Assembly (NCBI RefSeq): GCF_003334335.1
Contig: NZ_QOWQ01000013.1
Length of the DNA stretch: 64,000 bases
Source of the DNA: Escherichia coli
GTDB lineage: Bacteria; Pseudomonadota; Gammaproteobacteria; Enterobacterales; Enterobacteriaceae
Reading direction: 5' to 3' (one strand)
Shown here: positions 54,857 to 57,048 of the stretch, piece by piece
How the letters are laid out: each line of letters opens with the position of its first letter
How positions within the stretch are numbered: position 1 is the first letter of the stretch
The notes under the pieces: generated by a model
What the model saw: the letters and a program-made list of their open reading frames with translations, nothing else
Told to the model about the DNA's origin: nothing
Database searches by the model: none
Made by a program: the position numbers and the translations under genes

Positions 54857-56008
54857 ATGTCACTTGTCACCGATCTACCCGCCATTTTCGATCAGTTCTC
54901 TGAAGCTCGCCAGAAAGGCTTTCTCACCGTCATGGATCTCAAGGAGCGCGGCATTCCGCTGGTTGGCACCTACTGCACCTTTATGCCGCAAGAGATCCCG
55001 ATGGCAGCCGGTGCAGTTGTGGTTTCGCTCTGTTCCACCTCTGATGAAACCATTGAAGAAGCCGAGAAAGATCTGCCGCGCAACCTCTGCCCGCTGATTA
55101 AAAGCAGCTACGGCTTCGGCAAAACCGATAAATGCCCCTACTTCTACTTTTCTGATCTGGTGGTCGGTGAAACCACCTGCGACGGCAAAAAGAAAATGTA
55201 TGAATACATGGCGGAGTTTAAGCCTGTTCATGTGATGCAGTTACCGAACAGCGTTAAGGACGATGCCTCGCGTGCATTGTGGAAAGCCGAGATGCTGCGC
55301 TTGCAAAAAACGGTAGAAGAACGTTTTGGGCACGAGATTAGCGAAGATGCTCTGCGCGATGCCATTGCGCTGAAAAACCGCGAACGTCGCGCACTGGCTA
55401 ATTTTTATCATCTTGGGCAGTTAAATCCTCCGGCGCTTAGCGGCAGCGACATTCTGAAAGTGGTTTACGGCGCAACCTTCCGGTTCGATAAAGAGGCGTT
55501 GATCAATGAACTGGATGCAATGACCGCCCGCGTTCGTCAGCAGTGGGAAGAAGGCCAGCGACTGGACCCGCGTCCGCGCATTTTAATCACCGGCTGCCCG
55601 ATTGGCGGCGCAGCAGAAAAAGTGGTGCGCGCGATTGAAGAGAATGGCGGCTGGGTTGTCGGTTATGAAAACTGCACCGGGGCGAAAGCGACCGAGCAAT
55701 GCGTGGCAGAAACGGGCGATGTCTACGACGCGCTGGCGGATAAATATCTGGCGATTGGCTGCTCCTGTGTTTCGCCGAACGATCAGCGCCTGCAAATGCT
55801 CAGCCAGATGGTTGAAGAATATCAGGTCGATGGCGTAGTTGATGTGATTTTGCAGGCGTGCCATACCTACGCGGTGGAATCGCTGGCAATTAAACGTCAT
55901 GTGCGTCAGCAGCACAACATTCCTTATATCGCTATTGAAACAGACTACTCCACCTCAGATGTCGGGCAGCTCAGCACCCGCGTCGCGGCCTTTATTGAGA
56001 TGCTGTAA
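54857..56008 (+). CDS. yjiM: 2-hydroxyacyl-CoA dehydratase-like protein (HGD-D family component)
   Basis: 383 aa from MSLVTDLPAIFDQFSEARQKGFLTVMDL; conserved Cys residues typical of the dehydratase component. Confidence 0.8.
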   Translation: MSLVTDLPAIFDQFSEARQKGFLTVMDLKERGIPLVGTYCTFMPQEIPMAAGAVVVSLCSTSDETIEEAEKDLPRNLCPLIKSSYGFGKTDKCPYFYFSDLVVGETTCDGKKKMYEYMAEFKPVHVMQLPNSVKDDASRALWKAEMLRLQKTVEERFGHEISEDALRDAIALKNRERRALANFYHLGQLNPPALSGSDILKVVYGATFRFDKEALINELDAMTARVRQQWEEGQRLDPRPRILITGCPIGGAAEKVVRAIEENGGWVVGYENCTGAKATEQCVAETGDVYDALADKYLAIGCSCVSPNDQRLQMLSQMVEEYQVDGVVDVILQACHTYAVESLAIKRHVRQQHNIPYIAIETDYSTSDVGQLSTRVAAFIEML

Positions 56009-56017
56009 GGAGTGGCA

Positions 56018-56785
56018 GTGGCATATTCGATTGGCATTGATTCCGGCTCAACCGCCACCAAAGGGATCTTACTGGCAGACGGCGTGATTACGCGCCGTTT
56101 CCTCGTTCCAACACCCTTTCGCCCGGCAACAGCAATTACTGAAGCCTGGGAAACTCTGCGCGAAGGGTTAGAAACAACGCCGTTTCTGACGCTCACCGGC
56201 TACGGACGGCAACTGGTGGATTTTGCCGATAAACAGGTGACGGAAATCTCCTGTCACGGGCTGGGCGCACGGTTTCTTGCGCCAGCAACGCGCGGGGTAA
56301 TCGACATCGGTGGTCAGGACAGCAAAGTGATTCAGCTTGATGACGACGGTAACCTGTGCGATTTCCTGATGAATGACAAATGCGCGGCGGGCACCGGGCG
56401 TTTCCTGGAGATGATCTCGCGCACGCTTGGCACCAGCGTCGAGCAACTCGACAGCATTACCGAAAATGTCACGCCGCACGCCATCACGAGTATGTGCACA
56501 GTGTTTGCAGAATCAGAAGTGATCAGCTTGCGCTCAGCGGGCGTCGCGCCAGAAGCGATTCTCGCCGGAGTGATTAACGCGATGGCGCGGCGGAGTGCCA
56601 ATTTCATTGCTCGTCTCTCCTGTGAAGCGCCGATTCTGTTTACTGGTGGCGTTAGTCATTGCCAGACGTTTGCCCGGATGCTGGAATCTCATCTGGGAAT
56701 GCCGGTAAATACCCATCCTGATGCGCAATTTGCTGGCGCAATTGGCGCAGCGGTAATTGGTCAACGAGTGAGAAAACGCCGATGA
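56018..56785 (+). CDS. yjiL: BadF/BadG/BcrA/BcrD-type ATPase (CoA-substrate-specific enzyme activase)
   Basis: About 255 aa; GTG start; AYSIGIDSGSTATKGIL acetate/sugar-kinase-fold ATP motif; 3 bp downstream of yjiM. Confidence 0.8.
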   Translation: MAYSIGIDSGSTATKGILLADGVITRRFLVPTPFRPATAITEAWETLREGLETTPFLTLTGYGRQLVDFADKQVTEISCHGLGARFLAPATRGVIDIGGQDSKVIQLDDDGNLCDFLMNDKCAAGTGRFLEMISRTLGTSVEQLDSITENVTPHAITSMCTVFAESEVISLRSAGVAPEAILAGVINAMARRSANFIARLSCEAPILFTGGVSHCQTFARMLESHLGMPVNTHPDAQFAGAIGAAVIGQRVRKRR

Positions 56786-57048
56786 AAGAGTTTTTATTTT
56801 TATTTCACTCCACGGTCGGCGTCATACAAACCCGCAAGGCGTTGCAGGCAGCGGGCATGACTTTTCGCGTCAGCGATATTCCCCGTGATTTACGCGGCGG
56901 CTGCGGGTTATGCATTTGGCTGACCTGTCCCCCCGGCGAGGAAATACAATGGGTGATCCCTGGGCAAACCGAAGCGATATATTGCCAGCAGGGCAGCGAC
57001 TGGCAGTGCGTGGTGCATTACGATGCAGAAGCGTCAACCAGGCAATAA
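56782..57048 (+). CDS. Small Cys-containing protein, possible DUF3343-like accessory partner of YjiL/YjiM
   Basis: 88-aa ORF whose ATG overlaps the yjiL stop (ATGA); MKEFLFLFHSTVGVIQTRKALQAAGMTFRVSDIPRDLRGGCGLC...; family assignment is by recollection of fold-like pattern only. Confidence 0.45.
   Translation: MKEFLFLFHSTVGVIQTRKALQAAGMTFRVSDIPRDLRGGCGLCIWLTCPPGEEIQWVIPGQTEAIYCQQGSDWQCVVHYDAEASTRQ

Follow-up and report, generated by a model that had tools for sequence, protein, structure and literature searches.

The closest described relatives of the system considered here are the double-cubane protein DCCP and its reductase DCCP-R from Carboxydothermus hydrogenoformans (CHY_0487/CHY_0488; 6ENO, 7YYL), which are encoded by adjacent genes, with a single HGD-D gene that fits a homodimer. 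HgdAB/HgdC, HadBC/HadI and the class I benzoyl-CoA reductases belong to the same superfamilies (HGD-D and BcrAD/BadFG) and employ the same ATP-driven electron injection. ATP-dependent reduction of the double-cubane cluster has been demonstrated by others, in homologues of the E. coli proteins only, and the DCCP papers drawn on here (PMC7317905 among them) present the system as one of two components, with no third gene mentioned. Here we analyze yjiM, yjiL and ytiA, three consecutive genes in a 64,000-nucleotide stretch of Escherichia coli DNA (contig NZ_QOWQ01000013.1, hereafter the window). Sequence comparison points to a double-cubane reductase and its activase for the first two genes, and comparative genomics supports ytiA as a functional third component, tentatively a cysteine-based carrier of sulfur or selenium.

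The window is a segment of the E. coli chromosome that most closely matches strain MEW (99.7% identity) and has an O157:H7-like gene arrangement. The three genes, read directly from the sequence, lie head to tail on the plus strand at the coordinates given in the initial annotation, and the features relevant to the argument are as follows:

54857-56008, plus strand: yjiM, ATG at 54857, TAA at 56006-56008, 383 amino acids (aa)
56006-56020, plus strand: junction of the yjiM stop, AAGGAG and the yjiL GTG, TAAGGAGTGGCAGTG, read directly, with a 9-nt spacer
56018-56785, plus strand: yjiL, GTG start at 56018 (the RefSeq start), TGA at 56783-56785, 255 aa
56782-57048, plus strand: ytiA, ATG at 56782-56784, TAA at 57046-57048, 88 aa, with a Pfam match and RefSeq annotation
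56782-56785, plus strand: ATGA overlap of the ytiA start and yjiL stop, read from the sequence, a putative translational coupling site
56896-56913, plus strand: codons of the GGCGLC motif of YtiA, in which the Cys41 codon (56902-56904) specifies the family-invariant cysteine
56929-56934, plus strand: C6 homopolymer in ytiA, a frameshift-prone tract that is C5 in one annotated K-12 derivative
56966-57048, plus strand: divergent 3' part of ytiA, window/O157 allele versus K-12 allele

The locus resembles the C. hydrogenoformans pair in its adjacent genes and single HGD-D gene, whereas YjiM is without ~36 channel-closing N-terminal residues and E. coli adds an apparently coupled third gene, ytiA. 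The AAGGAG Shine-Dalgarno motif of yjiL overlaps the yjiM stop, and a second in-frame GTG stands upstream of the RefSeq yjiL start, at 56012. The small open reading frame (ORF) begins, as first described, on an ATGA that overlaps the yjiL stop. No strong Shine-Dalgarno motif was seen upstream of ytiA, and because no strong ribosome-binding site precedes it, ytiA is likely translated by termination-reinitiation at this overlap. The ATGA is identical in E. coli 81009 and in the related locus L086, and Yokenella has a 1-nt overlap (TAGTG).

Assignment of the first gene product departs from the initial annotation, which had called YjiM dehydratase-like. YjiM falls far below the cutoffs of curated 2-hydroxyacyl-CoA dehydratase models (HadC, 95.8 bits versus 700; HadB, 19.9 bits versus 750) and passes the NCBIfam double-cubane reductase model NF040772, aligned over the whole model (1-372), with 532 bits versus a cutoff of 350. 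It matches the C. hydrogenoformans DCCP (PDB 6ENO) at E = 4e-75 with 39% identity in a MAFFT alignment, and residues C40, C59, C78, C108, C273, C304 and C335 align with the seven motif cysteines of that protein (DCCPCh). This motif, described together with Cys94 in PMC7317905, comprises six cluster ligands and a seventh, non-ligand cysteine near the channel; YjiM C59 is the counterpart of the non-ligand residue at the channel mouth. By our own count, the cysteine spacings in YjiM and in the 6ENO sequence both differ from the printed motif by a few residues. Residue 26 of YjiM aligns with residue 62 of DCCPCh, and YjiM-type proteins have lengths of 382-396 aa versus 421-431 aa for the other DCCP type. 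The channel-closing N-terminal extension that defines class I (DCCPCh-type) proteins is thus absent, and YjiM has been placed in a putative class II, its missing N terminus being taken as an open channel for a larger substrate (PMC7317905). Dehydratases and benzoyl-CoA reductases pair two distinct HGD-D subunits that each hold a [4Fe-4S] cluster, whereas the E. coli locus has one gene with the seven-cysteine motif. Since the locus holds a single HGD-D gene rather than two, the dehydratase label is outdated, and YjiM/YjiL is, on grounds of homology, better described as an ATP-dependent double-cubane reductase with a predicted [8Fe-9S] cluster. The best 120 matches listed for YjiM in a word-indexed protein database were all close (86-99% identical), with no distant homologues among them. 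The yjiM transcript rises with frdAB and nrdDG as oxygen becomes limiting (PMC2241611), and the protein has been detected by mass spectrometry in published work.

YjiL, a member of the BcrAD/BadFG family, passes the activase model TIGR00241 with 363.9 bits versus a cutoff of 125.4 and is about as close to HgdC (PDB 1HUX, E = 4e-52) as to DCCP-R (chain 7YYL_E, E = 1e-46). Its NDKC (C122) and CTVFAESE (C160) motifs are both kept in the alignment to HgdC, whose matching cysteines we take to be the ligands of the dimer-bridging [4Fe-4S] cluster. A neighboring activase or reductase gene is also expected of a DCCP, and yjiL starts 9 nt downstream of yjiM. The pairing of an HGD-D protein with a BcrAD/BadFG protein, already recognized in the initial annotation, is borne out by the family models, and YjiL is by these comparisons the predicted ATP-dependent electron-injecting partner (an archerase, DCCP-R-like) of YjiM.

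The third gene, whose presence in reference genomes had initially been doubted, is annotated in RefSeq as ytiA, b4715 in K-12 MG1655 (85 aa there), and its product is labeled 'DUF3343 domain-containing protein' or 'putative Se/S carrier protein', where Se and S stand for selenium and sulfur. The suspected membership in DUF3343 was checked with the Pfam model PF11823 (DUF3343, Se_S_carrier), which matched residues 4-59 with E = 4.3e-13; YtiA also has the length (~70-100 aa) and the conserved cysteine expected of the family. The window protein is identical to WP_000657677.1 of O157:H7 and represents the O157-type allele. The region was found in 5386 of 5426 complete E. coli genomes, and orthologues are named from Escherichia, Citrobacter, Klebsiella, Raoultella, Kosakonia, Phytobacter and Atlantibacter, at least seven enterobacterial genera. 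Eighteen positions are invariant among 35 orthologues, and the first 45 residues are nearly fixed. Between E. coli alleles, the ratio of non-synonymous to synonymous substitution rates (dN/dS) is 0.15-0.28 for ytiA, 0.04-0.08 for yjiM and 0.10-0.22 for yjiL, and ytiA codons 1-60 show 5-6 synonymous changes versus one non-synonymous change. ytiA is a real gene under purifying selection, beyond a chance ORF.

YtiA contains cysteines at residues 41, 44, 49, 68 and 76. Cys41 and Pro34 are the sole invariant columns in 108 aligned DUF3343 sequences; Cys44 and Cys49 reach 90% conservation or more only among the enterobacterial orthologues, and conservation of Cys68 and Cys76 does not extend beyond Escherichia. 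The initial annotation had suggested an electron or sulfur carrier. Its sulfur half fits the genomic contexts of DUF3343 described below, whereas little speaks for its electron half, as only Cys41 is family-wide and Cys44 is absent from some YjiM/YjiL-linked orthologues. An AlphaFold2 model of YtiA (predicted local distance difference test score, pLDDT, 88) presents a beta-alpha-beta-loop-beta-alpha-beta-beta sandwich, with Cys41 at the end of an exposed loop before strand 3. Structure comparison gave generic ferredoxin-like matches only, and PDB searches with the single sequence and with the 108-sequence profile returned no relative with a solved structure.

A TusA/SirA-like carrier was considered and rejected, as no sequence match was obtained and the top 60 structural matches contained no TusA-like protein. 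The reactive cysteine of the TusA family lies at the N terminus of helix 1, whereas that of YtiA lies in the loop before strand 3. The resemblance is one of setting: TusA/YeeD-YeeE and YedF-YedE involve small single-domain proteins with one essential cysteine, encoded beside transporters, desulfurases or SelD, and DUF3343 neighborhoods are similar. Lin et al. 2015 (PMC5322559) proposed DUF3343, the same Pfam family with the same conserved cysteine as YtiA, as a selenium/sulfur chaperone, and they describe that cysteine and clustering with YedF and Sec-lyase-like genes; the carrier name of the family is thus a comparative-genomics hypothesis. Among the STRING partners listed there for Slackia are an 'activase' and a '2-hydroxyglutaryl-CoA dehydratase subunit', neither of them discussed, and the E. 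coli gene is not treated. As a separate observation, the DCCP-adjacent DUF3343 proteins of five Lachnospiraceae loci and L084 (L054, L057, L063, L064, L071 and L084; genes at ~9100-9400) carry KCCGIS or VCCGMS in place of GGCGLC, and all end in (R/K/V)YC.

Conservation of the small ORF and its co-occurrence with yjiL/yjiM homologues, the check suggested in the initial annotation, extend beyond E. coli. An HGD-D/BcrAD/DUF3343 triplet occurs in four different flanking contexts in Enterobacterales, namely E. coli, Yokenella (L094), L086 and L089, and a start/stop overlap is retained in three of the four. The neighbors at L086 resemble those drawn around a Morganella DUF3343 gene (PMC11933065). 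The DUF445 gene yjiN was ruled out as a fourth component, as it does not lie beside the triplet in Yokenella, L086 or L089.

For a broader survey we used 80 one-per-species loci, the closest relatives of DCCPCh, in which several lineages are represented repeatedly. Gene calls in the fetched loci were stop-to-stop ORFs assigned by phmmer or hmmsearch, and the DUF3343 profile used to scan the loci was derived from 119 sequences. An activase gene was present in 62 of the 80 DCCP loci, mostly directly downstream of the DCCP gene. In nine Bacillota loci, a DUF3343 gene directly follows the DCCP gene, lying between it and the activase gene in eight; no activase was found in the ninth, L031. Pfam membership was confirmed for one of these nine DUF3343 genes, that of Dorea. 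Seven of the nine loci hold a second DCCP gene, which is of the YjiM type and resembles E. coli YjiM far more closely. Of 12 independently sampled YjiM-type genes, 9 have a DUF3343 gene no more than 3 kb away; the same is true of 4 of 73 DCCPCh-type loci without a YjiM-type paralogue. Given these proportions and the three YjiM-type loci that lack the gene, the association of DUF3343 with YjiM-type DCCPs is strong and class-specific, and it is not obligatory. This class specificity fits the remark in PMC7317905 that an open YjiM channel suits 'another larger substrate'. Comparative genomics thereby supports the view, put forward in the initial annotation, that ytiA is a functional third component of the YjiM/YjiL system.

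Selenium and sulfur trafficking genes recur around DCCP genes and lie within ~8 kb in 30 of the 80 loci, where representative members of each family were checked against curated models. YedF-type genes were near DCCP in 18 loci, DUF3343 in 13, SelD in 11, SclA-like cysteine desulfurases in 9 and a YedE-like transporter in 1; for a single-copy gene, we estimate a chance expectation of ~0.5% of 17-kb windows, a figure that is our own estimate rather than a measured control. A Poribacteria locus (L025) encodes SelD, DCCP, activase, an SclA-like protein, YedF and DUF3343 on one strand, and Desulfosporosinus has DCCP and activase genes followed by those for SclA-like, SelD, YedF and DUF3343 proteins. 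In Lachnospiraceae, a YjiM-type DCCP gene is divergent from SclA-like, long DCCP, DUF3343 and activase genes; Chloroflexi have the order DCCP, YedF, SelD, and in Bathyarchaeota SelD directly follows DCCP. The embedding of DCCP among selenium genes thus spans at least four bacterial phyla and one archaeal phylum, in lineages that are not independent, as Desulfosporosinus and Lachnospiraceae were each sampled several times. DUF3343 genes also occur beside a YeeE/YedE-like transporter (L092), beside a transporter, TusA and a cysteine desulfurase (L097), and beside YqeC (L098).

Two further features of these selenium-gene neighborhoods were observed. DCCP-adjacent SelD ORFs (L045 2190-3005, L067 3206-3910, L078 6498-7487) begin right after an in-frame stop, which stands just before the SelD active-site (A/C)K motif and is a candidate selenocysteine (UGA) codon. 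Directly upstream of DCCP in Desulfosporosinus and related Peptococcaceae lies a gene for a ~110-aa protein (L008 1202-1537, L010 6773-7123, L011, L016, L018 7417-7782) that matches only the C-terminal half of TIGR03527 (long YedF), with a CVTCLDY motif and 104 bits versus a cutoff of 110.

Taken together with the open-channel assignment, these contexts lead us to propose, tentatively and as the best supported of the readings considered, that YtiA may be a cysteine-based chalcogen carrier that works with YjiM and YjiL in a three-part operon system. YjiL, as an ATP-hydrolyzing [4Fe-4S] archerase, would inject a low-potential electron into YjiM, and YjiM, as a class II double-cubane [8Fe-9S] protein without the channel-closing N-terminal helices, would accept it. 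The ferredoxin-like YtiA, produced in step with YjiL, would move a sulfur or selenium species to or from the open YjiM channel, docking there with a persulfide or perselenide on Cys41; reduction would then release the species, unless it is passed on in some other way. We infer the binding of sulfur or selenium by YtiA, its contact with YjiM and the resulting reaction. On a wider scale, double-cubane reductases, YjiM/YjiL with YtiA included, might conceivably take part in selenium or chalcogen mobilization, a doubtful extension in which they would either free selenide for SelD or need delivered selenium or sulfur for a bridged cofactor. In the selenide-freeing variant, ATP-energized electrons would act on carrier-bound or organic selenium species.

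Several observations weigh against the carrier proposal and its selenium extension. YtiA evolves fast, with 51%, 33% and 34% identity where YjiM has 88%, 82% and 74%, and frameshifted ytiA copies occur. DUF3343 is absent from 67 of the 80 DCCPCh-type loci, a sample that is neither random nor complete. Acetoanaerobium noterae carries a YjiM-type gene (64% identical) and yjiL with no DUF3343 gene within 7 kb, and the YjiM-type loci L044 and L078 likewise lack one. In E. coli, selD and yedEF lie elsewhere on the chromosome, and the selenium link at this locus therefore rests on analogy. It is not obvious that an ATP-energized electron is needed to reduce a persulfide or perselenide. In our literature searches, we found no experiment on YtiA or any DUF3343 protein and no expression data for ytiA itself; searches for E. 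coli ytiA/b4715 gave nothing relevant, as the 'ytiA' matches concern a Bacillus L31 paralogue.

Among other explanations, YtiA might act as a maturation factor that delivers sulfide or selenide to build or repair the YjiM double-cubane cluster, for example its bridging atom, which would parallel NifS/NifU with nitrogenase. We consider this unlikely, though several points favor it: an SclA-like desulfurase accompanies 9 of 13 DUF3343-bearing DCCP loci and none of the 67 DUF3343-free loci, SelD, the maker of the activated selenium donor, adjoins DCCP in several phyla, and a selenium-bridged cofactor is listed as a formal possibility in the passages of the Haft preprint drawn on here (bioRxiv 10.1101/2022.07.06.499078). 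Most DCCP loci, however, have no DUF3343 gene, and DCCPCh made in E. coli shows an [8Fe-9S] cluster in the crystal structure (PMC7317905), an argument that is weak because that host carries ytiA. A need common to both DCCP types would also not explain the preference of DUF3343 for the YjiM type. This preference for the open-channel class favors the carrier proposal over cluster maturation, whereas co-occurrence with desulfurase and SelD genes fits both. That ytiA is an unrelated neighbor or decaying remnant carried along with yjiML would account for its rapid divergence, for frameshift and truncation variants at the C6 tract and elsewhere, and for the replacement of its 3' end by recombination in part of the species. 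With dN/dS well below 1, a 45-residue core nearly invariant across genera, and a triplet that is kept in four contexts and recurs in another phylum with changed gene order, we regard this as very unlikely.

The position of ytiA also invites roles in which the protein carries no chalcogen. Because ytiA overlaps yjiL at the ATGA, the two proteins should be made in about equimolar amounts, and the DUF3343 gene directly precedes the activase gene in Bacillota, as might be expected of a small stoichiometric modulator or protector of YjiL or YjiM; such a protein might stabilize the oxygen-labile activase or gate ATP turnover. This role appears improbable to us, as family-wide invariance is limited to one cysteine and one proline in an exposed loop and DUF3343 members also lie beside transporters, desulfurases and YqeC with no activase gene seen nearby. 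Least probable is an electron carrier or thiol-disulfide partner whose Cys41-x-x-Cys44 pair feeds YjiL. The CxxC-like CGLC of E. coli YtiA, both cysteines of which are at least 90% conserved in Enterobacteriaceae, is suggestive of such a role, but Cys44 is missing from some YjiM/YjiL-linked orthologues, such as that of L089 (SSCGLSI), and from most of the DUF3343 family. Moreover, the activase [4Fe-4S] cluster needs a stronger reductant than a dithiol couple, and the known electron donors of HgdC-type activators are ferredoxin or flavodoxin.

Transcription signals around the three genes were sought by scanning. Promoter and terminator scans gave no plus-strand site in the spacer preceding yjiM or between the ytiA stop and the espX6 start, and the boundaries of the yjiM-yjiL-ytiA operon are accordingly inferred. 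No FNR-type site with up to two mismatches was present in the yjiN-yjiM spacer (54742-54856), with window-wide counts barely above chance, and an Rfam scan of 53000-58000 found no RNA family.

At its 3' end, ytiA varies within the species. The window and K-12 alleles have one difference before 56966 and many after it, and megablast identity to K-12-type genomes ends at 56992. Because the boundary of the divergent segment falls inside ytiA, from about codon 62, the gene has two C-terminal alleles, of 88 aa in 636 genomes and of 85 aa in most others, both of which retain the reading frame and an IYCQQ..W.C..HY pattern. At the C6 tract, apparent frame changes occur in many assembly-derived variants among database sequences, and the K-12 derivative PG20180059 has C5 there and is annotated as frameshifted. 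Downstream lies espX6 (57361-59499), which encodes a 712-aa pentapeptide-repeat type III effector and is not found in K-12-type genomes. The predicted EspX6 protein ends (~59240-59440) in tandem seven-residue repeats of EKQASDS and DKQAKNST types, and antisense frames over these repeats likewise give long repetitive ORFs.

Related genes are also on record from plasmids or from sequences filed as such. A Providencia stuartii IncC NDM plasmid is reported to carry yjiL, yjiM and an MFS transporter gene, apparently captured from a Klebsiella chromosome (PMC10215782). The A. noterae locus (L095, NZ_CP154629.1) comes from a 2.6-Mb PLSDB 'plasmid' with 4 features in the PLSDB gene table that looks chromosomal, and the PLSDB search returned mostly chromosomes filed as plasmids, several multi-megabase E. 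coli and Klebsiella records among them.

As genome annotation the locus is ordinary, since reference genomes already name all three genes. As far as our searches show, neither the three-part architecture nor its embedding among selenium genes appears to have been described. The nearest precedent is the Haft preprint (bioRxiv 10.1101/2022.07.06.499078), in which 955 of 970 NF040772 proteins come from SelD-positive genomes and a selenium-related substrate or selenium-bridged cofactor is suggested; the passages of the preprint used here make no mention of YedF, DUF3343 or SclA neighbors. Our gene-cluster data extend the phylogenetic-profile hint in these passages to concrete clusters and a specific hypothesis. 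Two comparative findings stand behind this, namely that a carrier-type protein prefers the open-channel enzymes and that DCCP and activase genes stand among SelD, YedF and SclA-like genes. Only artificial DCCP substrates, such as acetylene, are known, and the physiological substrate has been an open question since the cluster was described. The yjiM-yjiL-ytiA locus brings this question, the function of DUF3343 and the hand-over of selenium to SelD into genetically tractable E. coli. If selenium mobilization proved true, it would provide the first physiological role for DCCPs, for the DUF3343 family and possibly for YedF.

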